DNA from: a virus
Lineage: Duplodnaviria > Caudoviricetes
DNA: 63,968 bases
Strand: one strand, 5' to 3'
Virus record (IMG/VR): IMGVR_UViG_3300017707_001880
Location: 1 to 63,968 of that record
Position numbers and translations under genes: made by a program. Numbering within the stretch: the first letter of the stretch is position 1; every line of letters begins with the position of its first letter. Below the pieces are notes generated by a model. It searched no databases. It was not told where the DNA came from and was given only the letters and a program-made list of their open reading frames with translations. Positions 124 to 31,107 of this stretch are shown here, in pieces.

Positions 124-328
124 CAACTTGGCAGCGGCCCGAGCCGTCCACCAGGAGCGGTCACAAGCCCGAGCCGCCGAGCACGCCGCCCTGATCGCCC
201 GACACATGCCCGCCGAGACCACCACGCACACCGCAGCAGCGCGGCATCTAAACGCCCGAGGGATCACCACCATCACAGGCCGACCGCTCACGCGCCGGAC
301 TATCGCGCATAGGTTGCGTGTCGGGTGA
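1..328 (+). CDS. Serine recombinase, C-terminal part (helix E and HTH-like tail)
   Basis: [37 protein letters not shown]...ARHLNARGITT. Confidence 0.9.
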   Translation, partial: ADPLMLHIYAAMAEQERRMISARTKAALAAKKAGGATLGNPNLAAARAVHQERSQARAAEHAALIARHMPAETTTHTAAARHLNARGITTITGRPLTRRTIAHRLRVG

Positions 329-635
329 CTTTCTCGCGGAACGGGACGGCAGGCCGGACGGGCACACTTGACCCGTCAAATCCCCACCATTCCCACCACT
401 CCGATATGCAATGTGTCTGGTCTGGCGTTGGTTCACCCTTAGCCAACCTTAGCTAATGTGAGTGCGTAGAATGTGCGTCCTGCGCCCTGAATTTGCACGG
501 TGGGGGATTGTGGTGGCTTCTACCATTCCGCCCTTTGGTTCTACCATTCTGGGAGCCGCGGCTTCTGGCTAGTCTGTCTAGAACTGCCAGGCTGCATTAT
601 TTGGGGAAAAACGACAAGCCACGCGTCTTTTTCGG

Positions 636-664
636 TTGACGTATAGGGATGGACGTTTTAGGGT
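636..664 (+). promoter_or_regulatory. Putative sigma70-type early promoter
   Basis: TTGACG-N17-TAGGGT upstream of the first early ORF. Confidence 0.6.
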
Positions 665-672
665 TTGTTTCA

Positions 673-700
673 CCGGCCGAGGGACACGACCCCGGGCCGG
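673..700 (+). promoter_or_regulatory. Hairpin with ACACGAC loop, copy 1
   Basis: CCGGCCGAGGG-ACACGAC-CCCGGGCCGG. Confidence 0.55.
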
Positions 701-718
701 GTAGATAGGGGACCGACC

Positions 719-955
719 ATGTTCAATGTGTACCGCGCGCCACTGCACCCCGCGCACGCTCATTCTCTGATTGGGTCTTACGACCTGCTTTCGGATGCGG
801 TGAAGCACCTGCACAACGTGGGGCTGTGTGTTCAGGAGGACGACGAGAACCCCGGCCACTTTGACGCCATTTCATCGTCGGGGCAGCTTTATTCCATTGT
901 TCCTGCGGATAGCGTGTGGACGCCTTCGCGTGTGGTTTCTCGGGTGGAGTTCTAA
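719..955 (+). CDS. Hypothetical early protein
   Basis: ATG after a GGGGA RBS; MFNVYRAPLH... Confidence 0.6.
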   Translation: MFNVYRAPLHPAHAHSLIGSYDLLSDAVKHLHNVGLCVQEDDENPGHFDAISSSGQLYSIVPADSVWTPSRVVSRVEF

Positions 956-958
956 CCG

Positions 959-1306
959 ATGGCCGATGTTCGGTACTTCAGCGGCGATGTTCGTCTTCAC
1001 CAGCTGCAGGAGATTGCGCGGGCGGAGTTCGAGGCGTTGTTTCCGGGTGCGGTTGCTGCGCGGTGGTCTCCTGGTATGCGGCTGATTGGCCTTCCCGAGG
1101 GCATGACGCAAGTATGGGACAGGGAGGCGGGCCGCTGGTCTCGTACGGGCTTCCTGCCGGCAGAACGTCAGGTGACGTTTAAGGCGCGGCCTTCGCTGCA
1201 CGAGTGCGACGCCCGCTGCATGAACGCTACGGGCCGCACCATGCAATGCGAGTGCTCATGCGGGGGCAAGAACCACGGGAAGGGCGCGCGGCTGACTTGT
1301 GGCTGA
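959..1306 (+). CDS. Hypothetical Cys-rich (Zn-binding) early protein
   Basis: HECDARCMNATGRTMQCECSCGGKNHG. Confidence 0.7.
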   Translation: MADVRYFSGDVRLHQLQEIARAEFEALFPGAVAARWSPGMRLIGLPEGMTQVWDREAGRWSRTGFLPAERQVTFKARPSLHECDARCMNATGRTMQCECSCGGKNHGKGARLTCG

Positions 1307-1358
1307 CCCTGACGGCATGGGCGTTGCGGCGCTCATGCAGCCTAGGCCAGTGCTTAGG

Positions 1359-1375
1359 ACGGGACACGACCCCGT
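1359..1375 (+). promoter_or_regulatory. Hairpin with ACACGAC loop, copy 2
   Basis: ACGGG-ACACGAC-CCCGT in an intergenic gap. Confidence 0.55.
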
Positions 1376-1395
1376 TGACCGACAGGAGGCATGTT

Positions 1396-1824
1396 ATGCC
1401 CGCACCGACGAACAGTGATGACGTGATTGACAGCCGCGACGTGATCGAGCGGATTGACGAGCTTGAGGACGAGCTACGCGACCTGGAGGACGCAGCCGAC
1501 GACGCCGCCGACGACAGTGTGCGGGTTGCCGAGATACTGGCCGAGGTTGAGGCATGGAAGACCGGAGAAGAAGGCCGGGAGCTTGCCGCGCTGCAAGCCC
1601 TCGCGGCCGAGGCATCCGACTACGCCGACGACTGGCAGCACGGGGCTACGCTGGTGCGGGAATCCTACTGGCCGACCTATGCTCGGGAGTTGGTGGAGGA
1701 CGTAGGCGACCTGCCACGCGGCATCCCGTCCTACATCGTGATCGACTGGGAGGCGACGGCCGACAACCTGAAGGTGGATTACACCGAGGTTGATTTCGAC
1801 GGCACGACCTATCTCGTACGCTGA
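1396..1824 (+). CDS. ArdA-like antirestriction (DNA-mimic) protein
   Basis: Very acidic; C-terminal YARELVEDVGDLPRGIPSYIVIDWEATADNLKVDY resembles the ArdA C-terminal domain; AGGAGG RBS. Confidence 0.7.
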   Translation: MPAPTNSDDVIDSRDVIERIDELEDELRDLEDAADDAADDSVRVAEILAEVEAWKTGEEGRELAALQALAAEASDYADDWQHGATLVRESYWPTYARELVEDVGDLPRGIPSYIVIDWEATADNLKVDYTEVDFDGTTYLVR

Positions 1825-1838
1825 CAGGGGGAACGACC

Positions 1839-2588
1839 ATGTTGACCAACACACAGCGGAACGCCTACCGCGCGCGGCGCTTGCATGGCCAGTCCGCTTT
1901 CGCGGCGCTGAAGGGCGCGAGGGACGGAAACGCCTACACCGTGCGCCCCTATACCTCGGGGCACATGGGGCGCAATGGCGACACCCGGATTCAGTACTGG
2001 GAGCATAAGGGCGAGGTGCCGCTTCGGTTCGTTGGATATGCCGATGAATTGGACCGCTCGATCCGTCACGATGGGTGGTATTCCGACGCGCATCAGGAGG
2101 CGACCTTGCGCGGCATGGTCTACCGCTTGCCGGCGCGTGACGGAGAGGATCGTTACCTGTCAGGGTATGAAGAATCCGACTCCGGTAGCGTTGTCCTGTA
2201 TCTCGACATTCAGACCGACGAGACCGACGCGGCGCGGTTTTCCGACCGCGTTGCGGAGCGGTTGGCCGATGACTCGCGGGAATATGCCGAGGCATGGGAG
2301 GCAGGGCAGGACGCCAGCAACGAGGTGAACGATGCGATGCGGGACCTGCGCCACGAGGTATCCCGGATCGTGCAAATTGCGCTTTTCCCGGACCGCGCCG
2401 GCCTGACCCTGGCAGACGATGCTTCAGCCGATCGCCAGTATCAGGAAGCCCGCGACAAGCTGGAGTCAGTCATTCGCGCGGCTCGTGATTCGCGGCCCAC
2501 CTACAGCGCGGGATTGCGCTCAGCGTGGTCCGAGGGTTTCGACGGGCCGCTTACACTCACCGCCATCGGCGGAGGAATCGCCCTATGA
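1839..2588 (+). CDS. Hypothetical early protein
   Basis: 249-aa ORF with RBS, in the operon. Confidence 0.75.
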   Translation: MLTNTQRNAYRARRLHGQSAFAALKGARDGNAYTVRPYTSGHMGRNGDTRIQYWEHKGEVPLRFVGYADELDRSIRHDGWYSDAHQEATLRGMVYRLPARDGEDRYLSGYEESDSGSVVLYLDIQTDETDAARFSDRVAERLADDSREYAEAWEAGQDASNEVNDAMRDLRHEVSRIVQIALFPDRAGLTLADDASADRQYQEARDKLESVIRAARDSRPTYSAGLRSAWSEGFDGPLTLTAIGGGIAL

Positions 2589-2977
2589 GCAAATCAGACC
2601 CGAAGCGGGCGGCCGAGCTTGGCGCGTTGCTGGCGCGGCATTACCCCGAGGCTTCCATTCATTGCGTGGGGCTGGCGGTTCGCGAGATGCAGGGCGCGGC
2701 GCGCACTGCGGTAGCGTGGGAGGTGAAGCGTTGCAACGTGCCCATGTCCGAGGTTCAGGAGATCGCAGGCAGCACGCGCTTGGTTCGGCTTCAGCAGCGG
2801 ATTAACACCATCCTGGCCTATGCGCCGCTGCACCTCATGCCGGCCGAGTCTGGCGCGGTGGCGCACGACAACCCGGCTTGGATTAAGCTGGGCGGCGACC
2901 CTCGCGGGGCTTGTGCGCGGCTGATAGTGCCGGGGCTGGACGGCGACGGCCTCGGCGACGGCTTCGCGATCTACTGA
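2585..2977 (+). CDS. Hypothetical early protein
   Basis: ATGA overlap; GDPRG motif. Confidence 0.7.
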   Translation: MSKSDPKRAAELGALLARHYPEASIHCVGLAVREMQGAARTAVAWEVKRCNVPMSEVQEIAGSTRLVRLQQRINTILAYAPLHLMPAESGAVAHDNPAWIKLGGDPRGACARLIVPGLDGDGLGDGFAIY

Positions 2978-2988
2978 GGGAGGCGACA

Positions 2989-3153
2989 ATGACCGACCGC
3001 ATGACCATAGAAACCCTGCGCGAGATCGCCCGCCAGAGCGGCCTGCGCCACGCTGAATTCTGCCTTGAGCAGGAGGCGAGCCGGATCGGGGAAAGCGAAG
3101 TTGAACACCTGCGAGCCGAGCTTTCCCGGCTTGTGCAACGGGCTTGGGGCTGA
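2989..3153 (+). CDS. Small hypothetical protein
   Basis: GGAGG RBS; MTDRMTIETLREIAR. Confidence 0.55.
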   Translation: MTDRMTIETLREIARQSGLRHAEFCLEQEASRIGESEVEHLRAELSRLVQRAWG

Positions 3154-3156
3154 CCA

Positions 3157-3309
3157 ATGACCGAGGAACAGATTGAACGACAGGTTGAGCGCATGACCGA
3201 CGCGCTTGACCGCCGGTATGTGGGCGACATGACGGACGAGCAGTACGCCGCCGAGTGCCGCAGGATCGACACATGGGCGCGTGACGCGCTGGCGAAGCGG
3301 GGAGGCTGA
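3157..3309 (+). CDS. Small hypothetical protein (not in ORF track)
   Basis: MTEEQIERQVERMTDALDRRYVGDMTDEQYAAECRRIDTWA. Confidence 0.6.
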   Translation: MTEEQIERQVERMTDALDRRYVGDMTDEQYAAECRRIDTWARDALAKRGG

Positions 3310-3460
3310 CATGGGCACGACGCAACACGCGCCCGACGACACGCAGGACGAGACATATACGCCGGATTGGGCCGGCCAGTTCGTGCGGTGGGATTTCTGG
3401 CCGCCCAAGCACAGCGCCGACCCGCGCGCCTGATCCAACCAGCACAGAAGGAGCCCACGA

Positions 3461-3787
3461 ATGCTTGCCATCACCGACCGACCGACCGAGCGCACCGTCA
3501 CCTTGCCCATGCGGGCGGTCATTGCCGAGTGCCATGCGCCCGGCCCCATTCAGCCCGCGCGCGCCGCATGGTTCCACACGCGCTTGCGTGACGGGATCAC
3601 GATTTGCGACTCCGACGCTCGCCAGCTTGAGCAGTGGGAAGGCGCGACCGAGCGCCAGCTTCGCCCGTCCCCCGGCTTTGATTACGCGGCGGCGCGTGAG
3701 CGCCTGAAGTCACGGCGGGCGGCGTATCACGCGGCGGCTGCGAGCCTGGACGCAAAGCCGAGGTTTATCCCCGAGCGGGAGGCGTAG
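3461..3787 (+). CDS. Hypothetical early protein
   Basis: AAGGAG RBS; 108 aa. Confidence 0.65.
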   Translation: MLAITDRPTERTVTLPMRAVIAECHAPGPIQPARAAWFHTRLRDGITICDSDARQLEQWEGATERQLRPSPGFDYAAARERLKSRRAAYHAAAASLDAKPRFIPEREA

Positions 3788-3791
3788 GACC

Positions 3792-4169
3792 ATGGACGAC
3801 CTCACCAAGACGCTGATCGAGGCGTTGCAGAGGATCTACAATGGCAGCACGGTCACGGGCCGCTGGCTGGAACGGAGCGAAGGCTACGCAGGGGAGGAAG
3901 TCGGGCAAGACCCCGCCGCCCCGGTTATGGGCTTCTACGACTGGAGCAAGCCGCCGCCCGGCTACAACGCGGAGGGATGGAACGGCGAGGGAGACGAGCC
4001 GCCCGGCGCACTGATCCCGGCCGAGTGGGAAGCCTACAACGGCGAAGACCAAGACGGGTGGATTGCCTCGGTCGCGGATTACGCCAGGACTGCGCTCATT
4101 GCCGCAGGGATCGACCCGGACAAGGAACCGGAGCCGCCCCTTGGCTCCATGATGGGATGCGCATCATGA
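3792..4169 (+). CDS. Hypothetical acidic early protein
   Basis: RBS, coupled to neighbours. Confidence 0.65.
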   Translation: MDDLTKTLIEALQRIYNGSTVTGRWLERSEGYAGEEVGQDPAAPVMGFYDWSKPPPGYNAEGWNGEGDEPPGALIPAEWEAYNGEDQDGWIASVADYARTALIAAGIDPDKEPEPPLGSMMGCAS

Positions 4170-4651
4170 ACCACTATCGCGTGGCCATGACCGTGACCAA
4201 CGTCGAGGACTTCTATCACGTCGCGGAGGCGGTGGACGACGAGACCGCCAGGCGCTTTGCCAAGGAGGCGGCCGAGCGCGAGCACCCCAACGCCTTCGAC
4301 GTGAAGGTGGAATACACCGAGCTTCTGCCGCCCGAGCGGGAGGCGAAGCCGGGAGTCACCCCCGACCTGATGGCGCACATGCTGAAGGCTGCAAGCCTTG
4401 GGCTGGTGACCATCAACCCGAAGCCGACCGTCTACCTGTCATCGGCTGGCGTTATGGCTATGAAGCACGCGCAGGTTGCGGCGGCGTTCGATGAACTCAC
4501 CAAGGCCCGGGACATCATCGCGGGACTGCTGGATGCGGCCGAGCATGGGGCCATGGACCTGAGCCAGACCGACGAACAGGCCGGGGCCAAGGCCTGCACC
4601 ACGATCGAAGCCGCCCGCGCCTTCCTGGCCACCAAGGAGCCGACGACATGA
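4166..4651 (+). CDS. Hypothetical early protein
   Basis: ATGA overlaps on both sides. Confidence 0.65.
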   Translation: MNHYRVAMTVTNVEDFYHVAEAVDDETARRFAKEAAEREHPNAFDVKVEYTELLPPEREAKPGVTPDLMAHMLKAASLGLVTINPKPTVYLSSAGVMAMKHAQVAAAFDELTKARDIIAGLLDAAEHGAMDLSQTDEQAGAKACTTIEAARAFLATKEPTT

Positions 4652-4830
4652 CCACCCACGCGGAGCGCACCGCGGCGGCCCTCGCGGCATACGAGGCGGC
4701 GGAAGGCGTCTGGGTTGACGCCGTGGTGAACGGCAGGCCGGCGGGACGTTTGCAGCGGAATGCGGACCGCCTGGCACGCGCATGGGCGGAACTGGACAGC
4801 ACGACACCGGAGAAGGAGCGTGCGATATGA
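4648..4830 (+). CDS. Small hypothetical protein
   Basis: ATGA overlap with AAGGAG RBS. Confidence 0.55.
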   Translation: MTTHAERTAAALAAYEAAEGVWVDAVVNGRPAGRLQRNADRLARAWAELDSTTPEKERAI

Positions 4831-5240
4831 GGCTCGGTGCGAACGCTCGCCGCATCAAGGGGGCGCAAGAAAGCCTGCGTTACGCGCGCGAGAAATGGGC
4901 AAGCGCACTTGTGGACGGCTGGGCCGGTCCCGGAGAAGTGGCCGCTATGGAGCGCACGATTGAACATTGGATGCGTGTTTGCGCAGAGTTGGAGCGCACG
5001 ACACCGGACAAGAGGGAATGGCCGATTGAAAGTCGTAACTGCGGAACGTGCCGGTTCTGGAGAAGGCGCAAGCATGGCGGAGACGGGCGCTGCGCGTTCC
5101 TGGACGGCAAGCCGTTGCCGTGGTGGCATGTCGGGATGACGGGGGCGGTCACATGGCCGGACGATCGCAGGGGCGACAACTGCCCGGCATGGGATTTGCG
5201 GCGCGTCCTTGGCCGCACCTCACAACCCATCGTGCCTTGA
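4827..5240 (+). CDS. Hypothetical protein with CxxCxxW...C...C Zn/Fe-binding motif
   Basis: NCGTCRFW...GRC...NCPAW. Confidence 0.6.
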   Translation: MRLGANARRIKGAQESLRYAREKWASALVDGWAGPGEVAAMERTIEHWMRVCAELERTTPDKREWPIESRNCGTCRFWRRRKHGGDGRCAFLDGKPLPWWHVGMTGAVTWPDDRRGDNCPAWDLRRVLGRTSQPIVP

Positions 5241-5268
5241 CGGTGCGGGCGGTGCGCCCCCCCCACAG

Positions 5269-5285
5269 CCTGGACACGACCCAGG
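5269..5285 (+). promoter_or_regulatory. Hairpin with ACACGAC loop, copy 3
   Basis: CCTGG-ACACGAC-CCAGG in an intergenic gap. Confidence 0.55.
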
Positions 5286-5305
5286 AACACAACAGGAGGC
5301 TACTT

Positions 5306-5518
5306 ATGCAACGCACACAGCCCGCCGCGCCCCGCTTCCCCGACATCGCGCCCAACGCCTTGGCACAGCACCTGGCGGGCCTACCCGAGGACGCCTTGGC
5401 CGTCCTGACCGTCGCGGTTGACCGCAGGGCCGACCGCCGGCGCCAGGACCGCGCCAGATCCATCATGACCCGCGCCCTGGTGCATTGCATGACCAGCACG
5501 ACAAAGCGGGAGGCGTAG
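5306..5518 (+). CDS. Small hypothetical protein
   Basis: AGGAGG RBS; MQRTQPAAPRFPDI. Confidence 0.6.
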   Translation: MQRTQPAAPRFPDIAPNALAQHLAGLPEDALAVLTVAVDRRADRRRQDRARSIMTRALVHCMTSTTKREA

Positions 5519-5521
5519 GAG

Positions 5522-5692
5522 ATGGCTGAAGATTGCATCCTGCAAGACTACACCCCCGCGCTGGGTGCCCGAGCCGAGCACCTGCGCTGCTGGTTTCTGT
5601 CCGGCGATTGCGTGCCCTCGCACCAGTGCGACGAGCGGCGCCGGTTGAGCGCGGACGAGATCGCGTTGCGGGAACAGGAGGACGCGGCATGA
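5522..5692 (+). CDS. Small hypothetical protein (not in ORF track)
   Basis: MAEDCILQDYTPAL...EQEDAA; ATGA overlap with the next gene. Confidence 0.45.
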   Translation: MAEDCILQDYTPALGARAEHLRCWFLSGDCVPSHQCDERRRLSADEIALREQEDAA

Positions 5693-6009
5693 TCCTCTAC
5701 TACCTGCGCCCGGACGGCGCCTTCATCGCGGGCGACACAAAGCGCCACGTGACCGCCTACGCCTACCCGAACAGCCCGCACGCCGTAGAGGCGAGGGCCA
5801 GGCCGGCGATCGTGGCCGAGCGCATGATCGTCAGCGAGGTAGACCGGGTGAACCTGCCGGCGGCCCGGCGGGCGATCGCCATGCTGCAGGACGCCGAGCG
5901 GATGCACGAACTGGACGTGCATGGCACCGACACCGCCAATCGGTCGCGTCCCTCGCCGCGGGCCTTCATCCCGCCCGCGACCTACCGAGAGAGGGAGAAA
6001 AAAGTATGA
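5689..6009 (+). CDS. Hypothetical early protein
   Basis: AGGAGG RBS; MILYYLRPDGAFIAGD. Confidence 0.65.
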   Translation: MILYYLRPDGAFIAGDTKRHVTAYAYPNSPHAVEARARPAIVAERMIVSEVDRVNLPAARRAIAMLQDAERMHELDVHGTDTANRSRPSPRAFIPPATYREREKKV

Positions 6010-6338
6010 ACGAGGAAGCCATGAACCTCATCGAAGTGACCCGCCTGCCGCCCGACACGAGCGCAACGGCGGAGGAACACCGCATCGGCTTCGAGGCCGG
6101 CTGGCGGTTGGCCATGGACCGAGTGCTTAGGGAACTGGCGAGCGCGCTGATTTGCACCCCTCGGTGGGACGGCCGGGAACTGATGATCGGAGATATCGTG
6201 GTGGGGCGCATTCGCAAGATGGAATACGGGTTCAGCGGCGCCCTGTTCAATGGCACCAGCATCGACCGCCACTTGATCGAGGAAGAAGCGCGGGTGGCCC
6301 TGCAAGAGGCTCTGATTGAGATGGGAGACGAATCGTGA
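6006..6338 (+). CDS. Hypothetical protein
   Basis: Coupled ORF. Confidence 0.6.
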   Translation: MNEEAMNLIEVTRLPPDTSATAEEHRIGFEAGWRLAMDRVLRELASALICTPRWDGRELMIGDIVVGRIRKMEYGFSGALFNGTSIDRHLIEEEARVALQEALIEMGDES

Positions 6339-6637
6339 CCATCCCGTTCTCCGTCCTGTACGCGTGGGAAATCCCCGACCCCACGCCAGAGACCGGCCGG
6401 TGGCGGCTGGCACGCGGAACGCCCGGGAGCCACCTCACGCGGTTCGTCACCTCCGCCGACAAGGGGCGCGTCCTGCACTTCAGCAACCTGGAGGCGCTTG
6501 AACGCTTCCTCAACAAGGCAAGGGACTTGCCAAAACAGGCCACGCTATGGCCAAAAGGGCAACGCACGGCGCCCTCCCAGGCGGATGATGTAGCGGGAGG
6601 CGTAGCGCACCGAGACCCGAGCGACGAGGACGAGTAG
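6335..6637 (+). CDS. Hypothetical protein
   Basis: GTGA overlap. Confidence 0.55.
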   Translation: MTIPFSVLYAWEIPDPTPETGRWRLARGTPGSHLTRFVTSADKGRVLHFSNLEALERFLNKARDLPKQATLWPKGQRTAPSQADDVAGGVAHRDPSDEDE

Positions 6638-6644
6638 GAACCCC

Positions 6645-6980
6645 ATGAGCAGCCAGGACGACACCGAGGACGGCATTCCGGTCATGACCAAAGCCGATTT
6701 CAAAGAGCGGCTGTGGGCCTTGGGCATGCGACGGGCAAACTTCTGCCGGGCAACCATGATTACCCGGCAGGCCGCCCTGGAATGGGGCAAGAGCCGGGGC
6801 TTCCCTGGGTGGGTGCATTCCTGGCTGATCCTGGCCGAGCAGTCCCCGGAGGTGGCCAGAATGCTGGGGGCGCTGCACATGCCCGAGCAGATGCCGGTCA
6901 TGAAGCCACCGCCGACGCCGCCCAAGAGAAGGCGTCGGGCGCAGGTGCGAGCGGAGATCAAGACCAGCAAGGGGCAGTGA
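6645..6980 (+). CDS. Putative HTH (XRE-like) DNA-binding protein
   Basis: MTKADFKERLWALGMRRANFCRATMITRQAALEWG...FPGWV. Confidence 0.55.
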   Translation: MSSQDDTEDGIPVMTKADFKERLWALGMRRANFCRATMITRQAALEWGKSRGFPGWVHSWLILAEQSPEVARMLGALHMPEQMPVMKPPPTPPKRRRRAQVRAEIKTSKGQ

Positions 6981-7006
6981 AAGGGAGGGGGAAACCCCTC
7001 CCTTTC
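6979..7006. terminator. Bidirectional hairpin terminator between convergent operons
   Basis: GAAAGGGAGGGG-GAAA-CCCCTCCCTTTC, a perfect 12-bp stem. Confidence 0.8.
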
Positions 7007-7009
7007 TCG

Positions 7010-7483
7010 TTACCCCAACTGCCGTAGCTTGAACTCAGCAGCGGGGCCTTCCCGCCGCGGCGACGGGTTGAACACCGCCCCGTAGTGCTCAGGGCACCAG
7101 GACTGGCCCTGTAGCGACGGCGCATCACAGAATCGATACTCGCGGGGCCGCTCCTTGTGCCCCCATAGCGGCCAGCAGCAGGTGGGGCTGGCACCCACGC
7201 GCGGGGGAGGCGAGCGCACCGGCGCCGGGGGCTTGGGCACTGTGCGCCATGTCTTCGCACCCCGCTCGGCTGGAGGCGTGGGCAGGGGCGGCACAACCTC
7301 GCCGTTCCACGTTGCCTTGACCGAGCCCGAGGGCTTGAACCGACTCTCGATGCCGAGACGCTGCGCCTTGCCGATGACGGCGTTCTTCACCAGCCCCATG
7401 CGCCGTGCGGTTTCCCCAAACGAGCATCCGTCCGCCACGTGCTGGCGCATGGTTTCAATCAACTCGTGCGTCCACTCAACCAA
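7010..7483 (-). CDS. gcrA: GcrA cell-cycle regulator homolog
   Basis: N-terminal WTHELIETMR...GLVKNAVIGKAQRLG; C-terminal CCWPLWG...FCDAP...SWCPEHY. Confidence 0.88.
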   Translation of the reverse strand: MVEWTHELIETMRQHVADGCSFGETARRMGLVKNAVIGKAQRLGIESRFKPSGSVKATWNGEVVPPLPTPPAERGAKTWRTVPKPPAPVRSPPPRVGASPTCCWPLWGHKERPREYRFCDAPSLQGQSWCPEHYGAVFNPSPRREGPAAEFKLRQLG

Positions 7484-8093
7484 GGACCGGCCCTCCCTCT
7501 GCCTTCTGCCTTGCCTGCCATTCCGCGATCCAGGACGGCGGCAGCAGCCCCAGGTGCTGGGGGGCGAACTTGCCGATACAGGCGGTCATGGAGGCTGCCA
7601 GATGCAGTTCCAGGGCTGCGATGACCGGCAGCCCGCCGGGCGGGGGATCTGGCGCGAAGATGCCGTCCCGTTCCGAGGGTGCGAGCGCGGCCCAGGCAAG
7701 CCGGCGCTGGAACACGGACACCTTCTCCCTGATCCCCGCGGCATCCTCCCACTCGGCCGCCATCTGGTCGTGCGTGGGGACAGGCGACGCATGCGCCTTC
7801 CGCCAGTCCTCGGGTGATTCCAGGGCCGGCGGCCGGGGGCGCGTCTTCACCGCCCACGCATCCAGCACGCCGATCAGCGCCTTGGCGTTGGGGATGCCGG
7901 TGGAGGCTACGGCAGCATCCCGCAGCGTCTGGTCGTTGAAGGCGTCGTCCGCGAAGTGGGCGAGCAGCGGGAGCATCTTCACCAGCTTCTCGACGGTCTT
8001 CTCGCTTTCGCCAGGCCGCACGGCCACGGCAAGGGAGGACAGCCACACCCGGCGGCGCGTGTCTCCGCCCAGGCCGTCGAACATCTCGCTCAT
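7476..8093 (-). CDS. Hypothetical protein, possibly helicase loader/inhibitor-like
   Basis: Helical ORF two genes downstream of the initiator-like domain; function inferred from context only. Confidence 0.55.
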   Translation of the reverse strand: MSEMFDGLGGDTRRRVWLSSLAVAVRPGESEKTVEKLVKMLPLLAHFADDAFNDQTLRDAAVASTGIPNAKALIGVLDAWAVKTRPRPPALESPEDWRKAHASPVPTHDQMAAEWEDAAGIREKVSVFQRRLAWAALAPSERDGIFAPDPPPGGLPVIAALELHLAASMTACIGKFAPQHLGLLPPSWIAEWQARQKAEGGPVLG

Positions 8094-8803
8094 CTATGCA
8101 CCTCCAGGATCGCGCGACCGATCATTTCCGGGATCGCTGGATAGACCGAATTGCCGAGCGCGCCGATTGCGTCCACCCGACCGGGTATCCCATGAACCAC
8201 TCGCACCACGTCGGGTTCAGTGGTCCGCCCAGGACATTGGGCAACTGATCGCCGGACGTGGGCGATCGTTTCCGCCGGCTCAACCCGTCCGGCTTGTTCG
8301 GGAATCGGTAATCCCGAGCGGCAAGGGTGGGCAACAACCCAGACGCGGTTTCGATGGTGGTGGGCTCCCGCGGCGGCAGCCGGTAAGCAATCCCACTCCG
8401 CGTCATACCCGCAGCCGGCCAACGCTCCGACCACATCGCCCATTCCCCGTCCAAGCATCTCTGCCACGTTCTCCAGGATGACGTGCTTGGGTCGAACCAT
8501 GCGAATGGCACGTATGGCGTGCCAGAACAGGCCCGAACGAGCGCCTGAAAGTCCGGTGGCATCGGGGTTTGCAATGCTGATGTCCTGACAGGGGTAGCCG
8601 GCCGTAATCACGTCCGCTTCCGGGAACACATCGACGGCCGTGATGTCTCCAAGCACGGGAACGCCGGGCCAATGCTTTGCCAGCACCTGCCGGCAGAACG
8701 GGTCTATCTCGCAGAACGCCACGGTCTCGAAACCGCCCGTCCGCTCCAGACCGAGGCTGAAGCCACCAACCCCGGAAAAAAGGTCCAGAACCTTGAGCTT
8801 CAC
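8090..8803 (-). CDS. dcm: DNA cytosine-5 methyltransferase (alpha polypeptide; lacks motif IX)
   Basis: Motifs I DLFSGVGG, IV GYPCQDIS, VI ENV, VIII HHRNRVWVV, X ALGNSV. Confidence 0.9.
   Translation of the reverse strand: MKLKVLDLFSGVGGFSLGLERTGGFETVAFCEIDPFCRQVLAKHWPGVPVLGDITAVDVFPEADVITAGYPCQDISIANPDATGLSGARSGLFWHAIRAIRMVRPKHVILENVAEMLGRGMGDVVGALAGCGYDAEWDCLPAAAAGAHHHRNRVWVVAHPCRSGLPIPEQAGRVEPAETIAHVRRSVAQCPGRTTEPDVVRVVHGIPGRVDAIGALGNSVYPAIPEMIGRAILEVHR
8122..8574 (-). CDS. Nested out-of-frame C5-MTase beta polypeptide carrying motif IX
   Basis: LLPTLAARDY...GGPLNPTWCEWFMGYPVGWT matches motif IX; start uncertain (TTG 8574 or ATG 8562). Confidence 0.75.
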   Translation of the reverse strand: MQTPMPPDFQALVRACSGTPYVPFAWFDPSTSSWRTWQRCLDGEWAMWSERWPAAGMTRSGIAYRLPPREPTTIETASGLLPTLAARDYRFPNKPDGLSRRKRSPTSGDQLPNVLGGPLNPTWCEWFMGYPVGWTQSARSAIRSIQRSRK

Positions 8804-9153
8804 CGAAAGTCCTCCGGCTTGAGCCCCGCCGCGGCGAGCGTGCTGTCGAACTCAGCCTCGGGCGCTTCGTCCTGCCACCGGCGCTGGTTCAGCCAGGTCG
8901 CCGGGTGCGGCCGGTATGTAGGATCGGCCGAGAACTTGAATCGCCGCAGGCCAGCCAGTAGCAGCGCCTCCGCGTTGTCGGGATCCTGGTGATCCGCCAC
9001 CTTCAGCGCCTTGGCGTAGGCAATGCGCGCGGCCTGAATGGCGACCTTGCGGGGATATTTCGCATACCACCGGAGGAAGCGCGCCTCGGCGCTGTTGCCC
9101 TGGTGCGCCACCACCCCGCGCTGACGGGGCAAAGCCAGTTCCTGGCCGCTCAT
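8800..9153 (-). CDS. Stand-alone replication-initiator C-terminal-like domain
   Basis: FLRWYAKYPRKVA...YRPHPATWLNQRRWQDE. Confidence 0.7.
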   Translation of the reverse strand: MSGQELALPRQRGVVAHQGNSAEARFLRWYAKYPRKVAIQAARIAYAKALKVADHQDPDNAEALLLAGLRRFKFSADPTYRPHPATWLNQRRWQDEAPEAEFDSTLAAAGLKPEDFR

Positions 9154-9422
9154 GTCGGTATCCCCCTGTCCCGAACCACCCGCAGCACGCTCGCGCTGTG
9201 CGGGTCGTAGATCACGTCGAAAGTGGTGCCGACGCCCTGGTAGACCGTCCACCGCTCCCCGTCCCGCACTGGCCCCACCAGCCGAACCTTGATGTCGCGT
9301 TCCAGGTGAATCCCGTCATCGGCCAGCGCGTCGAGGATGGCCTGACTGATGCGGGCAAGCGGCGCCACCGCGGCGGCTTCGGGGTTCGGGCCTTCATCGT
9401 CGTCATCATTACCCCTGGTCAT
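9150..9422 (-). CDS. Hypothetical protein
   Basis: Coupled ORF; start uncertain. Confidence 0.5.
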   Translation of the reverse strand: MTRGNDDDDEGPNPEAAAVAPLARISQAILDALADDGIHLERDIKVRLVGPVRDGERWTVYQGVGTTFDVIYDPHSASVLRVVRDRGIPT

Positions 9423-9876
9423 GGGGCGTGGCGGTCGTGACGCCATCGGCATTCTCCTGGATTGGCCTGATTTCTATGACAAGGCGCGCGGTGTCGGAGT
9501 ACCGCTTGCGGATGGACAAATCGGACACCTGCGCGTCGTCCACCCACACGACGTTGTTCAGCGCGTCCTTGAGCAGCTTGCAGATGTTGTCGGCATCGGG
9601 CTTCGACTTGTGCGGCTGGCCCCGCAGCGCAGCGGCGCGCTTGGCCTTGGACCAGCTTTTCGGCACATCGAAGAACGCGCCCACCCGCAGGTCGATCGCG
9701 CCCGTCAGCATGGTGCGACCGGCCATCGCCCGAGCGGCAAGCAGCCCGATCAGGGTTTGCTCGACGCGCTGTTTCTTGGGCGTAAAGCGGTGCCGCCCCC
9801 CAAACGGACTGTCAGCCGGGCGCGACCAGCCTTTCGGTGCGCCCGGCACGACAATGCGGATTACGTCGTCGCTCAC
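9409..9876 (-). CDS. rusA: RusA-family Holliday junction resolvase
   Basis: KPDADNICKLLKDALNNVVWVDDAQV. Confidence 0.92.
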   Translation of the reverse strand: MSDDVIRIVVPGAPKGWSRPADSPFGGRHRFTPKKQRVEQTLIGLLAARAMAGRTMLTGAIDLRVGAFFDVPKSWSKAKRAAALRGQPHKSKPDADNICKLLKDALNNVVWVDDAQVSDLSIRKRYSDTARLVIEIRPIQENADGVTTATPHDQG

Positions 9877-10208
9877 GGGGCCGGACTGGTGAAGAACGCG
9901 CGGCCGGACAACTGCACGCCGATGCCCTGAGAATCCCCGATCGGCACCAGTTCCGGTTGCCTGCGCCACCCGACGAACGCGTAGCCAGCGCCCCGGGCAC
10001 GCACATCAGCAAGCCACCGGTCGATCAGTTTCGCCGCACCCTCGAAGCGCCCCGGCTCATCGTCTGGGAGCAGGACGCCAACCGCGTAATCAACAACCAG
10101 ATCACAGGGCGGCAGTTTGCCCTCCAGCCCCGCCACCATCCCGGCTTCCGCCAGCGCCTGTCCGAGATGCGCTTGGCTGGCCAGGAACCAGCGATCGTCC
10201 TCCATCAC
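9873..10208 (-). CDS. Hypothetical protein
   Basis: Coupled ORF. Confidence 0.55.
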   Translation of the reverse strand: MMEDDRWFLASQAHLGQALAEAGMVAGLEGKLPPCDLVVDYAVGVLLPDDEPGRFEGAAKLIDRWLADVRARGAGYAFVGWRRQPELVPIGDSQGIGVQLSGRAFFTSPAP

Positions 10209-10978
10209 GCCACCTCGGGGGGAGGCTCGAACAACGGGGCGCCGGGCTCGGTGGGCTCAACGCGTTCCTCGGCCATGCCGCCGGCCCGCATCTTGTCGCC
10301 CAGCCCGTCCTCCAGGCCGTTGCGCCACTGCACGAACGACTCGCTGCCCGGGTCATGGGCAAAGGGGTTGTCCCCCAACTTCATGCCGCTGTTGCCCGCT
10401 TTGTAGCCGTCCGAATATGCCTGGGCCACCTTCAGCCGGACGCTGGCGCTCAGATCCTCGGGCGTTTTCGGCAGCGGCAGGTTGGGATCACGCGCGCCGC
10501 CAAACAGGCCGTTGAAGTTGGCCTGACCGTCCGGCTCGACCTCGATGATGTCCATGTCGATGGCGTAGGCTTGGGCGTTCTGGATGTAGGCCCGCGCCTC
10601 GGACTTCTCGACCATGGACAGCGAGTGCATCAGCTTCAGCATCTTGCGGTCGCCGCCCAACGCCTCGAACCGCGCGAGCAGGGATGCAATCTGCTGGCTG
10701 ACGCGGGCCGCTTCCGTCTTGAGGATCGTGTAGTCGGCCAGGGCTTCCTTCTTCTCCGCCGGCGACGGGCCATTGCCCTTGGGCTTTGCCGGCCTGCCGC
10801 GCCCGCGCTTGGGCTTGTCCTCGGTGGGTTCCGCGCCCTCGGCGGCTTCCGTCTGCGTCTCCTGTTCCTGCCCCTCGGGAACCTGATCGGCCTCCGGTAG
10901 CCGCTTGCGGGACCGGCCGGGGCGCAGTTCGACCACCTGCCCGTCCTCCCCGATGATGTTCTTTATCTGTCGTGCCAT
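10205..10978 (-). CDS. GapR-like nucleoid protein fused to an RMF-like C-terminal motif, with an AT-hook
   Basis: KRGRGRPAK; ARFEALGGDRKMLKLMHSL...YAIDMDI; AYSDGYKAG...NPF...WRNGLEDG. Confidence 0.5.
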   Translation of the reverse strand: MARQIKNIIGEDGQVVELRPGRSRKRLPEADQVPEGQEQETQTEAAEGAEPTEDKPKRGRGRPAKPKGNGPSPAEKKEALADYTILKTEAARVSQQIASLLARFEALGGDRKMLKLMHSLSMVEKSEARAYIQNAQAYAIDMDIIEVEPDGQANFNGLFGGARDPNLPLPKTPEDLSASVRLKVAQAYSDGYKAGNSGMKLGDNPFAHDPGSESFVQWRNGLEDGLGDKMRAGGMAEERVEPTEPGAPLFEPPPEVA

Positions 10979-11032
10979 CCGAATTTCATCCTTGATTGGT
11001 AGGGCGCGCACTTTCCCCCGGGCGCCCGCATC

Positions 11033-11055
11033 CGTCAATAAATTCGGCATTGACG
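11033..11055. promoter_or_regulatory. Back-to-back TTGACG -35 elements of divergent promoters
   Basis: CGTCAAT-N9-ATTGACG inverted repeat between divergent operons. Confidence 0.6.
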
Positions 11056-11056
11056 C

Positions 11057-11111
11057 GACAACAACTCGACGCCAACATGACGCCAACACGACATCAACAG
11101 GACGCCAACCC
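11057..11111 (+). repeat. Five tandem 11-bp repeats GACNNCAACNN
   Basis: GACAACAACTC GACGCCAACAT GACGCCAACAC GACATCAACAG GACGCCAACCC. Confidence 0.9.
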
Positions 11112-11504
11112 GTGGCCGACTTCCTCACCTCCATTGCTGACGAGCCGGGATTGCCGCAGCCTCGGCCGGGCTTCTATCTCATTGCCCTGGTGCCGGGCGG
11201 GTGGAAGGTGCCGGCGGAAATCACCGCGGTCCAATGCGGGTGGGGACTGATCGTCGACGGTGATACGCACCCGCTGGAATGGAACCGGGAGGACATCCTG
11301 CTGGCCTACGCGCAGGGGATGTTGACCGGAGAACTGTTCAACCACCCCATGTTGCGCGTCGTGCTGTTTGGGGAAGCAATCCCCGAGCATCAGTACCTGC
11401 ACCGGCTGGCGATGAAGGATTGGGCTCGCCGGCATGAGCCCGAACACCCGTGCCTGCACCCCGAGCACGCGATGCTACTCGGGAACACCCCGCCACCATT
11501 TTGA
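11112..11504 (+). CDS. Hypothetical protein
   Basis: GTG start after the repeats; PQPRPGFYLIALVPGGWKVPAEI. Confidence 0.65.
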   Translation: MADFLTSIADEPGLPQPRPGFYLIALVPGGWKVPAEITAVQCGWGLIVDGDTHPLEWNREDILLAYAQGMLTGELFNHPMLRVVLFGEAIPEHQYLHRLAMKDWARRHEPEHPCLHPEHAMLLGNTPPPF

Positions 11505-11518
11505 GGATCACGCATGCC

Positions 11519-11701
11519 ATGACCAAGCCGCTGTCACCGACGACATCGACCGTTGCGGTCGAGATCATCAAGGCCATCGAGCAGGCCCTGACCTATGCCT
11601 CTGAGCGCCGGGCCAACAAGCCCATGCGCTTCATCGAGAGGCTGCACGCCCACGGCTTCACCATCGTGCCCACGCCGACCGGACCGGAGACCAAGGCGTG
11701 A
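11519..11701 (+). CDS. Small hypothetical protein
   Basis: GAGG RBS. Confidence 0.55.
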   Translation: MTKPLSPTTSTVAVEIIKAIEQALTYASERRANKPMRFIERLHAHGFTIVPTPTGPETKA

Positions 11702-12351
11702 GCCAGCCACTGACGCCGGTAGACCTCACCCCAAGCCGTAAGCACCAGCTTGTCACCCCCAGGGGCGACGTCGAGATGTGGCTTTGGGCAGAGAACGGGG
11801 CGTGGCACGGGCCGACCAACATGCCGCCAGAACGCTGGCACTCCATGACCGCCATGCACGCTGCCATCAACGGCTATAAGCTGGCACAGGGGTTCACAGC
11901 CCCCAAGCCAGCCGAGCCCGACGAGTTGCTGCCCGAGGACGCGGGGAAGCGCGCGGTGTATTGGCTCTGGAAGGCGGGGCGCGTGACGCAGTGGATTTGG
12001 TCGGCTCAGGACCGGATTTGGGCGCGCTACGAAGAGACGCCAGCCACCGCCATGGCTCCCGGAGATGCCTGGAAACAAGGCTTCCGCATGTCTACCGCGC
12101 GCGAGCAGCCGGCCGAGGCCGATCCCGATATCGCCCCACCGCGCGCCCCCGTCTACCGCATGCGCGCCGAGGGGCTGACGCTGGAGGAATACATCAAGGT
12201 CCGCCGGGAGCGGGTGCGGACCATGCGGGCTGCCGCCGACGAACAAGCGCGACGGACTCGCGATCAGCTTGAGCGTGCCGACATGCTGGAGACCGAACTG
12301 GACTGCCTGGAATGCAGCATGATGCGCGTCAACCCGGAGAACCCGACATGA
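11698..12351 (+). CDS. Hypothetical protein
   Basis: GTGA overlap; 217 aa. Confidence 0.65.
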   Translation: MSQPLTPVDLTPSRKHQLVTPRGDVEMWLWAENGAWHGPTNMPPERWHSMTAMHAAINGYKLAQGFTAPKPAEPDELLPEDAGKRAVYWLWKAGRVTQWIWSAQDRIWARYEETPATAMAPGDAWKQGFRMSTAREQPAEADPDIAPPRAPVYRMRAEGLTLEEYIKVRRERVRTMRAAADEQARRTRDQLERADMLETELDCLECSMMRVNPENPT

Positions 12352-13115
12352 GCGACGCAGCCCCCATCGGCCACAACAACCCGCCGCCGCCGACCACCGC
12401 CGACGAGTGGAACATTTACCTGACCGAGCGGTTCGCGCCGCAGCAGAAGCGCAAGAACCGCCTGCTCGCCGCCTACGAACGGTTCCTGGTCGCGCACCCG
12501 CAGATCGAGGACGACGAGACGGCCAAGAAGGCGGCCGACTTCCGCGCCCAACTCCAGGACTTGGAGAAGATAGCCACCGCCATCCACACGCAGGAGAAGG
12601 CGCCCGTGCTCCTGGCATCCCGCGCGATCGACGGCTTCCTGCGGGACTTCAAACTACCGCTGTCCAATGCCGCTGACGTCATCCGGGACCGCAACACCGC
12701 CTACCTGCGGCGCAAGGAAGACGCCATCCGGCAGCAGCGCCAGAAGGAGGCCGAGGAAGCCCGGCAGCGGGCCGAGGCTGCGGCGGAACAGGCCATGGAG
12801 ACGATGGCGCCGGCGGAACTGCGGGCGGCCACCATCGAGAGCATCAACGCCGACGACGCGGCCAAGCGGGCGAACGCGAAGGCTTCCGACCTGGTGCGCG
12901 TGACCGGCGACTACGGCACGACCGTCACCCTCAAGACGACGTGGAAGTTCGATCCCGAGACGTCCGACCTGATGCAGCTTGTGAAGGCCGTGGCCGAGGG
13001 TAAGGCGCCGCTCTACTACCTGACCTTCGCCACCACCCGCATCAACGTCGCCGTGCGGACGGAGAAGGTGCGCCAGATCCCCGGCTGCGCCATCACCGAA
13101 CACAAAACCTCCTGA
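12348..13115 (+). CDS. Coiled-coil recombination-associated protein (Gam/Gp157-like)
   Basis: PIGHNNPP N-terminus, long helical region, C-terminal RQIPGCAITE; adjacent to exonuclease and RecT. Confidence 0.6.
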   Translation: MSDAAPIGHNNPPPPTTADEWNIYLTERFAPQQKRKNRLLAAYERFLVAHPQIEDDETAKKAADFRAQLQDLEKIATAIHTQEKAPVLLASRAIDGFLRDFKLPLSNAADVIRDRNTAYLRRKEDAIRQQRQKEAEEARQRAEAAAEQAMETMAPAELRAATIESINADDAAKRANAKASDLVRVTGDYGTTVTLKTTWKFDPETSDLMQLVKAVAEGKAPLYYLTFATTRINVAVRTEKVRQIPGCAITEHKTS

Positions 13116-13132
13116 CCCAAGGACCGACACGC

Positions 13133-13753
13133 ATGAAAATCCTGGCCTTCGACACCGAGACCACCGGCATCCCCGAGTGGAAACTGCCGAGCGACGACCC
13201 CAAGCAACCGCATCTCGTCTCCCTGGCGTTCGTCATGTACGACACCGAGGACGGCAGCACGCTGAACGAGCAGCATTGGATCGTGCGCCCGGACGGGTGG
13301 ACCATCCCCGAGGAAGTCACCGCCATCCACGGCATTACGACCGAATACGCCGAGGAACAGGGCGTGCCGCTTGAGGACATCCTGACGATCTTCGCTACCA
13401 TGTGCGGCGCGTCCGACCAGCGCGTGGCTTACGGCGCCCCGTTCGATAAGCGCATCCTCCGCATCGCCATGCTGCACGCCGAGTGGTCGCGAGCGGCGGC
13501 CGACAGTTTCTTCGAGATATACCCCGTCGACTGCATCATGAAGGCCGCCGGCCCCCTGTGCCAAATGACGCCGACCGACGCCATGATGGCCACGAACCGC
13601 CGCACCTTCAAATCACCCAAACTCGGGGAAGCCTACGAAACCCTCTGCGGCAAGACCATCGAAGGCGCACACTCCGCCCTGGTCGACACCCGCGCCGCCC
13701 TTGAAGTCTGGCTCGCCATCCAAGCCCGCACCACCAACCCGGAGACGTTCTGA
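13133..13753 (+). CDS. DEDDh 3'-5' exonuclease (DnaQ-like)
   Basis: AFDTETTG, IHGIT, FDKRIL, AHSALVDTRA. Confidence 0.92.
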   Translation: MKILAFDTETTGIPEWKLPSDDPKQPHLVSLAFVMYDTEDGSTLNEQHWIVRPDGWTIPEEVTAIHGITTEYAEEQGVPLEDILTIFATMCGASDQRVAYGAPFDKRILRIAMLHAEWSRAAADSFFEIYPVDCIMKAAGPLCQMTPTDAMMATNRRTFKSPKLGEAYETLCGKTIEGAHSALVDTRAALEVWLAIQARTTNPETF

Positions 13754-13756
13754 TCC

Positions 13757-15697: not shown

Positions 15698-15870
15698 GCG
15701 AGAAAGAAACTTACGTCGAGATGCGCTTGAGGTTTGCGAGGGTCATGGAGCGTGGCCTGCGCAACCTGAAGGGCGATTACCCCGGGCTCGACAGCCTGGA
15801 GACAAAAGCGTGGCTTGCGAAGCAGGCGGAGGCTAACCAGCAAAAAAAAGAGAATGGGGAACCGCCATGA
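15694..15870 (+). CDS. Small hypothetical protein
   Basis: GTGA overlap. Confidence 0.5.
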   Translation: MSEKETYVEMRLRFARVMERGLRNLKGDYPGLDSLETKAWLAKQAEANQQKKENGEPP

Positions 15871-16217
15871 CCCCCACCGCCCTACGCGCCCTCGCGGCCC
15901 GCGTGCTGGCCGAGGAACCGAGCGACGAGTTGCGGGATGCGGTGCTGGATGCGATCGGGCACCACGTTCCGCCCGGCGCCTTCTACGATTTGTGGCGGCC
16001 CAACCCCCTCACCAGCCACGACGCCGCGTTCGATGCGATGCCGGCGGGGTGGCGGATCATAACGATCACACAGACCGACCACGGTTATATCGCAAAGATC
16101 GGTCGGGGGATTTTCTTTGCCCATAACTCCTATACCCCGGTGCCCGACCTCCCCCCGGCCCTGACAGCCGCCGGGCTGCTGGCGCGGGCGGTGGATGCGG
16201 AGGCGTCCAATGGCTGA
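15867..16217 (+). CDS. Hypothetical protein
   Basis: PNPLTSHDAAFDAMPAGW...PALTAAGLLARA. Confidence 0.65.
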   Translation: MTPTALRALAARVLAEEPSDELRDAVLDAIGHHVPPGAFYDLWRPNPLTSHDAAFDAMPAGWRIITITQTDHGYIAKIGRGIFFAHNSYTPVPDLPPALTAAGLLARAVDAEASNG

Positions 16218-16391
16218 TTGGTCATCGCCCCTCACATCATTGGACCGAGGATTGAGCGAGGCAAACATGAGTAACTGCATGGTCGCCGGTATCAGCGGGT
16301 GGTGCGGCATGTCGTGTCCCGTGCTGTGCGCCGGGAAGTGCGAGGAAGAAGAAATGATTGAGGCCAAACGAGCCGAACAGGGAGACGGGGC

Positions 16392-17510: not shown

Positions 17511-17659
17511 ACCGAAACGCCGCACGGCGGCAGGGAGAGAGTATGAGCACCATCCATCAATCAGGCGGCCGAATTGTGATCGACGGTCGCGAGTTCACCG
17601 GCCATTCCGTCAGCATCATCAACGGTCGGCAACCACGACGCCATGCGCTATCATGCGCC

Positions 17660-20050: not shown

Positions 20051-20064
20051 GCTCCGTCTCCTGT

Positions 20065-29621: not shown

Positions 29622-29624
29622 TGC

Positions 29625-31097: not shown

Positions 31098-31107
31098 GGG
31101 CACCCTC

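Follow-up and report, generated by a model that had tools for sequence, protein, structure and literature searches.

The stretch analysed here, hereafter the window, is the entire 63,968-bp IMG/VR virus record IMGVR_UViG_3300017707_001880 (Caudoviricetes), which is circularly permuted. A block of + strand genes runs from ~54.6 kb across the record ends to ~7 kb, and its last part (~670–7000) is a tight array of 19 small early genes, 14 of whose products have no PHROG match. Only three gaps in this array exceed 60 nt (329–718, 1307–1395 and 5241–5305), and each of them holds one copy of a short hairpin, here called hairpin B, with the same 7-nt loop and a stem that differs in all three copies:

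673–700, + strand: hairpin B copy 1, CCGGCC-GA-GGG / ACACGAC / CCC-G-GGCCGG; ATG at 719, 18 nt downstream
1359–1375, + strand: hairpin B copy 2, ACGGG / ACACGAC / CCCGT; ATG at 1396 (ArdA-like gene), 20 nt downstream
5269–5285, + strand: hairpin B copy 3, CCTGG / ACACGAC / CCAGG; ATG at 5306, 20 nt downstream

An earlier sequence-only reading of the window had described three intergenic copies with one loop and different complementary stems, each about 20 nt before a start codon, and its sequences and coordinates are correct; the distances are 18, 20 and 20 nt. Copy 1 is the most elaborate, with a 6-bp outer stem, a 2×1 internal loop and the GGG/CCC pairs that close the ACACGAC loop. RNAfold gives −20.0 kcal/mol for copy 1 (z-score −3.1), −8.3 kcal/mol for copy 2 (z-score −1.9) and −7.6 kcal/mol for copy 3 (z-score −2.9). 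The 11-mer GGACACGACCC has exactly three matches in the window, at 682, 1362 and 5272, all of them hairpin tops. When one mismatch is allowed, there are 8 matches against 2.63 expected, a number reached in 2 of 100 shuffles. The bare 7-mer ACACGAC is not over-represented genome-wide (14 occurrences against 8.71 expected, with 14 reached in 7 of 100 shuffles); it is its placement that is unusual, 7 of the 14 occurrences lying within 40 nt upstream of + strand starts. On our own rough gene list, ACACGAC is held by 7 of 79 such upstream intervals against 0.29 expected. Within the early operon, six of the nine + strand occurrences of CACGAC are found at −25 to −36 of a start, the other bins from −120 to −1 being empty, and the reverse complement of CACGAC does not occur there at all.

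Through a terminase search, one related viral contig was found, G001 (37.7 kb, terminase 86% identical), which is syntenic across the early region at 73–94% DNA identity and whose end coincides exactly with copy 3. A 20-mer scan of metagenome contigs, with a pattern containing copy 1, gave six loci; two are relatives, L024 (1.3 kb) and L028 (1.2 kb), and the other four are chance coding matches. Contigs from four freshwater DNA runs add partial information, on variants rather than on transcript ends. Hairpins stand at the same positions for copies 1–3 in G001, for copy 1 in L024, and for copies 1 and 2 in both L028 and a contig of run X9. The sequence-only reading had staked the element on its conservation in related phages, and in G001, L024 and L028 the hairpins are indeed kept in place. 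The core of copy 1 is the same in these three relatives; in X9 its loop is AGCACGACG, and the flanks are altered and still complementary. The copy 2 stem, ACGGG/CCCGT, is unchanged in G001, L028 and X9, around a loop that reads ACCACGAAC there and carries two insertions, and the copy 3 stem is unchanged in G001 around the loop ACACGACG. Two further copies are present in G001, each before another early gene: copy 4, CCCTG-GCACGA-CAGGG, lies 25 nt before the start, and copy 5, TTCCC-CACGACACGGC-GGGAG, has a 3′ arm that is itself the Shine-Dalgarno sequence. Five independent loci are therefore represented by five different stems, and the loops measure 6, 7, 8, 9, 9 and 11 nt with only CACGA(C) constant. 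The loop had earlier been called an invariant ACACGAC; this is true of the three window copies and fails in the relatives, whose loops are ACCACGAAC, ACACGACG, GCACGA, CACGACACGGC and AGCACGACG.

A closing stem of at least 5 bp is found at four of the five independent loci, the fifth having 3+6 bp, as compared with 16 of 173 other CACGA sites in the window for which a stem of 5 bp or more closes a loop no longer than 11 nt around the site; by our own arithmetic the chance of such an enrichment is about 3 in 10,000. A covariance model (R1) was built from the three window copies only, since a MAFFT alignment of all seven hairpins was structure-inconsistent. It scores these copies at 24–29 bits and the next window match, a half copy at 55309–55329, at 14.5 bits, and it misses G001 copies 4 and 5. 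A check against Rfam, which had been suggested before, matched no family: there were no matches at the gathering score in the whole window, and at E up to 5 the region 300–5600 gave a single chance match to a small nucleolar RNA on the opposite strand. We conclude that the hairpin B family is real, under selection and previously undescribed, and that it belongs to a narrow lineage of freshwater phages.

Beyond this lineage the element was sought with several baits. The blastn comparison with a phage collection returned just short matches to the ArdA-like gene in unrelated phages, and at eight distant loci with ArdA-like genes (38–56% identity) there was no motif in the 140 nt upstream. Scans of viral contigs with the 249-aa, 137-aa and 78-aa proteins led to G001 or to nothing, and those with the copy 2 and copy 3 patterns gave 18 loci, 16 unrelated coding ones and two in G001 itself. 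No CACGA hairpin was seen before a start in L002 (terminase 58% identical), where the gene calls are poor. A look-alike, GCAGT-ACACGA-ACTGC, occurs at 7942–7957 of L019, a distant phage (GC 54%) with an ArdA-like gene 45% identical, and is followed by a CA-rich leader, a Shine-Dalgarno sequence and an ATG; this single instance could be due to chance or could be a remote relative of the element.

Copies 2 and 3 are the last parts of larger modules, together with the following hairpins:

1315–1338, + strand: module 2, hairpin A; stem of 10 bp, two of them G.U pairs (fold of 1307–1395)
1341–1358, + strand: module 2, middle hairpin; CCUAGGC / GCUUAGG, including one G.U pair
5247–5259, + strand: module 3, hairpin A; GGGCG-GTG-CGCCC

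Hairpin A of module 2 lies just past the stop codon at 1304–1306, with TGACGG at 1310–1315, and that of module 3 just past the stop codon at 5238–5240, which is itself within TGACGG at 5238–5243. The upstream context that the earlier reading had assigned to both copies, namely TGACGG, a GC hairpin and CAGCCT (1338–1343 and 5266–5271), is present. The sequence of hairpin A differs by locus and by genome; in G001 it is GACGGGA..TCCCGTC in module 2 and GGCCGG-TTACGA-CCGGCC in module 3, in the same places. L028 retains the middle hairpin of module 2, which there has one G.U pair more. Because a tRNA/tmRNA search found none in the window, module 2, with its three hairpins, was no longer read as tRNA-like. 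In all four internal modules (2 and 3 of the window, 4 and 5 of G001) hairpin A is followed by hairpin B, and copy 1 has no hairpin A. Modules of 60–90 nt are conserved while the flanking genes are swapped: L028 retains the 89-nt module 2 at 92% identity between different genes on both sides, and G001 retains module 3 behind a different upstream gene.

The order of the hairpins bears on an explanation in which they are passive structures at transcript ends, the RNA being cut in the gaps so that hairpin A protects the upstream 3′ end and hairpin B the downstream 5′ end, with copy 1 at the primary 5′ end. The A-then-B order in 4 of 4 internal modules is well accounted for by it, as is copy 1, a hairpin B alone ~8 nt past the presumed −10. 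The logic is that of the RNase III sites between the early genes of T7, to which the elements are alike in being structured, in occupying every larger gap of the early operon and in standing just before the next gene. The T7 sites, however, are long irregular duplexes cut by RNase III, an enzyme requiring a stem of about 20 bp, and the stems of 5–10 bp found here are too short for it; the A–B linkers, GC-rich and 1–9 nt long, would be poor sites for RNase E. Moreover, a stabilising hairpin needs no particular loop, yet the sequence-specific CACGA is the one constant feature. We regard this explanation as unlikely.

A similar layout has been described for the PeSL cassettes of T4-type phages: an upstream stop, a −35-like box (TTGACGG in our modules), a stem-loop of G and C tracts, a Shine-Dalgarno sequence and a start (PMC2839356). 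If the modules were mobile cassettes of this kind, a promoter and stem-loop would start and insulate transcription of the next gene and would serve as a homology patch for the shuffling of early genes. Hairpins A supply a stem-loop between the upstream stop and the Shine-Dalgarno sequence, of different sequence in G001, and in both cases the conserved cassette stands in a hyperplastic region of small ORFan early genes with its neighbours exchanged (PMC2839356), as seen for modules 2 (L028) and 3 (G001). Each PeSL cassette contains a strong sigma-70-like promoter with both −35 and −10 (PMC2839356). In modules 2 and 3, by contrast, there is only the −35-like (C/T)TGACGG and no −10 at workable spacing, and a consensus scan lists no promoter-like site in 1–8000. 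The distance from TTGACG to hairpin B varies between orthologues, the extra hairpin with a conserved loop motif is not a PeSL feature, the phage group and GC content differ, and any phage mosaic would be expected to have breakpoints at gene borders. The reading of the modules as PeSL-like cassettes is given little credence.

These comparisons raise the question of whether hairpin B is read as RNA or as DNA. One answer would be a regulator site in duplex DNA, either comparable with the stoperators of cluster A mycobacteriophages, which are asymmetric, one-orientation intergenic sites, or an operator of the helix-turn-helix (HTH) protein encoded nearby. The features concerned are the following:

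56823–57188: gene of the HTH protein
55311–55322, + strand: half copy ACGGGACACGAC, equal to the 5′ arm and loop of copy 2 without the 3′ arm, 3 nt before the ATG at 55326
63473–63479, + strand: ACACGAC within the serine recombinase leader; ATG at 63502, 22 nt downstream

The core motif is asymmetric, always in the orientation of transcription and only in gaps, and the half copy and the recombinase-leader copy carry it without the hairpin, all as a duplex-DNA site would have it. On the other side, one- and two-base insertions have entered the core in orthologues while the complementarity of the flanks is kept, which speaks against a site in duplex DNA and in favour of a hairpin recognised by its loop. 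The arms of the inverted repeat also differ between copies, something that a DNA-binding dimer neither needs nor tolerates. In addition, the G.U pairs of the accompanying hairpins can form on the + strand only, and sense RNA is thus favoured over a DNA cruciform. A duplex-DNA site is very improbable, and we infer that the element acts as RNA.

Both hairpin-free sites are among the degenerate versions noted by the sequence-only reading and do exist; a third, before 57231, is unconserved in the relative and probably due to chance. The region of the half copy is 98.8% identical in G001, so that conservation there is uninformative. In the recombinase leader, CCACACGAC is kept in G001 and the flanking bases on both sides differ, with no convincing hairpin common to the window and the relative. 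The same leader (63438–63479) reads TTGTCC, a 17-nt spacer and TAGGGT, with ACACGAC 7 nt later. Another ACACGAC, at 11086 and one of the seven within 40 nt upstream of a start, falls within a triple repeat of GACGCCAAC (~11050–11110) in the divergent gap that precedes the + strand gene at 11112, possibly by chance; the repeats themselves may be iterons or operators.

Hairpin B ends 18–25 nt before the start in seven of eight instances, and in the eighth its 3′ arm is the Shine-Dalgarno sequence. This narrow distance puts hairpin B on the upstream border of the ribosome-binding site. Among the explanations weighed, the most likely is that hairpin B would be an RNA operator for a sequence-specific protein that acts on translation or elongation of the early genes. 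In its narrower form, as an operator in sense-strand RNA through which such a protein may control the translation or stability of selected early genes, we favour it tentatively, at a little under an even chance. The sequence-only reading had also proposed a protein-binding RNA element, and this remains the best fit to stems that differ and are kept despite changes in loop length, to the + strand G.U pairs and to the fixed distance; its finer division into a nut-like site, a translational operator and a processing site is beyond what sequence alone can separate.

We propose that hairpin B would be a cis-acting element of the + strand early mRNA, in which a stem of 5–9 bp would present CACGA(C) near the 5′ side of a loop of 6–11 nt. 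With its end 18–25 nt before the start codon, it would sit at the 5′ edge of the ribosome-binding site, where a loop-bound protein beside the Shine-Dalgarno region could tune or shut off translation and thereby affect mRNA stability. The regulated subset in the window would consist of the first operon gene, the ArdA-like gene and the gene of a small basic protein. The binding factor is probably encoded by the phage; the best candidate, a 70-aa arginine-rich helical protein, would then regulate itself.

A close parallel is the operator of gene 43 in T4 and RB69, which in T4 is a conserved-loop hairpin of 16–18 nt, located upstream of the ribosome-binding site, and which is bound by a phage protein that represses translation (PMC3014915). 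The likeness lies in a short conserved-loop hairpin adjoining the ribosome-binding site of a phage early mRNA (PMC3014915). The T4 operator is a single copy and autogenous, with DNA polymerase as its binder, whereas hairpin B has three to five copies before unrelated small genes, a CACGA loop and a binder that is only putative. The nearest 'start-associated' analogue is provided by the SAS and ESAS motifs of cluster K mycobacteriophages, likewise short, asymmetric and one-orientation motifs upstream of a subset of non-structural gene starts (PMC3203893). The SAS is a 13-bp motif that includes the Shine-Dalgarno sequence and lies 3–8 bp from the start; about half of the copies are associated with inverted repeats, and a role in translation is suspected (PMC3203893). 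Unlike the SAS, the hairpin B motif is in a loop, apart from the Shine-Dalgarno sequence and 25–37 nt upstream of the start, and in the ESAS the arms themselves are conserved (PMC3203893), whereas the arms of hairpin B are variable.

Several points weigh against an RNA operator. Close relatives are rare, with about five related sequences in all; the copy 1 hairpins of L024 and L028 are not independent, having been part of the search pattern; and orthologous copies are mostly identical in the stem, so the covariation is that between paralogous copies. The z-scores of single hairpins are modest (−1.4 to −3.1). Three of the six CACGAC occurrences at about −30 are coding, for the Thr-Thr dipeptide of paralogous-looking C-termini, and for these copies the cause may be similarity between proteins and not a signal in the RNA. 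The sites at 55311 and in the recombinase leader, which have the motif without a shared hairpin, suggest that the hairpin may not be essential to whatever reads CACGAC. Among 24 sequencing runs from 14 studies, no RNA run containing this DNA was listed. As for the binder, the conserved first operon gene encodes no RNA-binding-like fold, and arginine-rich helices bind DNA as well.

As to the coding copies, three adjacent genes have in common a tail or internal peptide, (S/R)TT(P/K)xK(R)E (4780–4830, 4985–5025 and 5485–5518), which is encoded by CACGAC and followed by the Shine-Dalgarno sequence of the next gene; this points either to paralogous proteins or to a copy of the signal embedded in coding sequence. 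A separate hairpin at 16302–16329 has a 10-bp stem and a loop exactly complementary to GGACACGA. It is located within a Cys-rich open reading frame (16268–16395), and pairing of its 8-nt loop with the hairpin B loop was treated as chance on account of this position inside a small Cys-rich frame.

The question of which protein might read the loops leads to the gene immediately behind copy 3. The operon also has a candidate terminator at its end:

5306–5518, + strand: gene of a 70-aa protein, directly after copy 3; isoelectric point 11.4
6987–7001, + strand: terminator-like hairpin followed by a T-rich tail, closing the early operon and facing convergent genes

The 70-aa protein contains an arginine-rich stretch, VDRRADRRRQDRARS, with 8 Arg in 20 residues, central rather than N-terminal and included in a long predicted helix (residues 28–69; predicted local distance difference test, pLDDT, above 90). 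It has only four close homologues among 5.8 billion proteins, with the arginine stretch invariant, and it is restricted to the same narrow lineage as hairpin B. No similarity to any named family was detected, and an Atlas search gave no usable match. That this protein might be the cognate factor of hairpin B is a guess from its position and composition. The product of the first operon gene was set aside as the binding factor (pLDDT 78, no PDB fold match at E≤0.001, no Atlas lead).

An arginine-rich protein encoded next to a conserved-loop hairpin recalls lambda, in which nutL, a hairpin site, lies just upstream of the gene for the small arginine-rich protein N. On an N/nut-like explanation, the 70-aa protein would be recruited to the polymerase by the hairpins in the nascent RNA for processive antitermination, and Rho or hairpins A would then be ignored. 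Here, too, small GC-rich hairpins share a conserved loop and lie in the early operon; one stands just after the presumed early promoter, another immediately upstream of the arginine-rich protein gene, and the internal copies lie beside GC-rich hairpins in untranslated gaps, which are possible polarity sites. The lambda boxB loop, however, is a pentaloop, compared with 6–11 nt here, and neither sequence nor Rfam similarity was found. The 8-nt lambda boxA consensus, with at most one mismatch, has 13 matches in the window and none on the + strand of 1–7000. At least three copies occur in one operon, and these hairpins B come after hairpin A rather than before it. Apart from the operon-end site at 6987–7001, the only + strand terminator-like site listed in the operon is a weak one at 808–822. 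Nut sites of the lambda type are defined by boxA plus boxB together with N protein (PMC2724277, PMC2800207, PMC3177189), and the host here, too, is probably a different one, an alphaproteobacterium. Antitermination of the nut type is accordingly considered doubtful, more so than passive transcript ends. A bolder proposal, speculative and unlikely as a whole, is that the hairpins and the 70-aa protein could form a cognate pair of the lambda N–boxB type: the protein would read CACGA loops on nascent early RNA, either making the polymerase resistant to polarity or shutting off early translation, its own included, and the modules would be portable linkers for the exchange of early genes.

Upstream of copy 1 there is one site that resembles a promoter:

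636–664, + strand: possible host-type promoter, TTGACG, 17-nt spacer, TAGGGT; copy 1 begins 8 nt later

This may be a weak host-type promoter of the early operon. Its −35 and spacing are kept in G001, and in L024 the −35 is different; the −10 matches at three of six positions, which explains why the consensus scan does not list it. The view of the sequence-only reading that the early transcript has copy 1 at its 5′ end depends on this weak match, unlisted in the scan. The −10-like hexamer TAGGGT is shared by this site and the recombinase leader. A sigma-54-like reading was dropped, as by eye only G001 copy 4 fits a GG-N10-GC frame.

Hairpins upstream of early genes are also a feature of phage N4, in which single-stranded DNA hairpins are promoters for an injected virion RNA polymerase. 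The only sign of such an enzyme comes from the following gene:

20065–26604, − strand: gene of a 2179-aa polyvalent protein with an LPD38 domain near the C-terminus

This protein has a weak match (E 0.0016) to a 'virion RNA polymerase' PHROG, confined to profile positions 303–426 of 3406, that is, to an N-terminal, non-polymerase part. No RNA polymerase domain was found in any large protein with PHROGs, Pfam and a PDB sequence search, and the same searches revealed neither a phage RNA polymerase nor a sigma factor among the window proteins. The LPD38 domain marks the 2179-aa product as a polyvalent protein, the genome is otherwise lambdoid-like in its gene content, with an HTH regulator, a replication initiator, RecT, RusA and a serine recombinase, and the loops of 6–11 nt contrast with those of 3 nt in the N4 promoter hairpins. 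The single-stranded DNA hairpin promoter offered as an alternative in the sequence-only reading thus lacks its polymerase and is scarcely credible. Residues 1–1300 of the 2179-aa protein are nearly unannotated, with weak matches only, to the N-terminal regions of giant phage proteins.

In uncultured phages, early operons are rich in small genes without known function, many of them likely to be anti-defence genes, and the timing of such genes is understood only in a few model phages. Although the kind of element is familiar and the lineage narrow, the fixed loop core of the hairpin, together with a protein that may plausibly be its cognate, makes post-transcriptional or elongation control open to direct testing in a non-model phage. 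Through the conserved modules one can also see where early genes are swapped, an aid in reading mosaic phage genomes.

Apart from the early operon, the − strand genes of the window include those of the terminase, an SU10-type portal, a head protein and the polyvalent protein, and an exonuclease, a DNA methyltransferase and a GcrA-like protein are encoded besides RecT, RusA, the replication initiator and the HTH regulator. As a consequence of the circular permutation, the serine recombinase/invertase gene spans the record ends (63502..328). The GcrA-like gene indicates that the host is probably alphaproteobacterial. The identification goes no further, since no prophage relative was found in genome contigs, which gave just recombinases 50–53% identical in two unrelated metagenome-assembled genomes. 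Among the early genes, the one at 1396 is weakly ArdA-like, with a match below the Pfam cut-off, and the 115-aa protein encoded by 959–1306 has a Cys-rich C-terminus (CxxxC...CxCxCGG) and matches just one PHROG of unknown function.

In the 390 nt that separate the recombinase gene from the presumed early promoter there are direct repeats of TTCTACCATTC at 518–528 and 539–549, 21 nt apart, and after them an imperfect palindrome at 565–590 (CTGGC..GCCAG around TCTAGA). Both are kept in G001 and L024 and may be operator, res or att sites. Downstream of this gap, the early region (700–7000) is hyperplastic, with gene-sized insertions, deletions and replacements at gene borders in the relatives and run contigs: 1839–2588 is absent in two runs, 3792–4169 is absent in two runs, and 959–1306 is replaced in L028 and G001. 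One breakpoint in a run contig, at 700, is the 3′ end of copy 1. On the reverse strand of L028, at 865–930, an intergenic GC-rich hairpin is flanked by a 13-nt direct repeat, CCCCGAGCATGGG, without a CACGA hairpin, and may be another kind of intergenic cassette.

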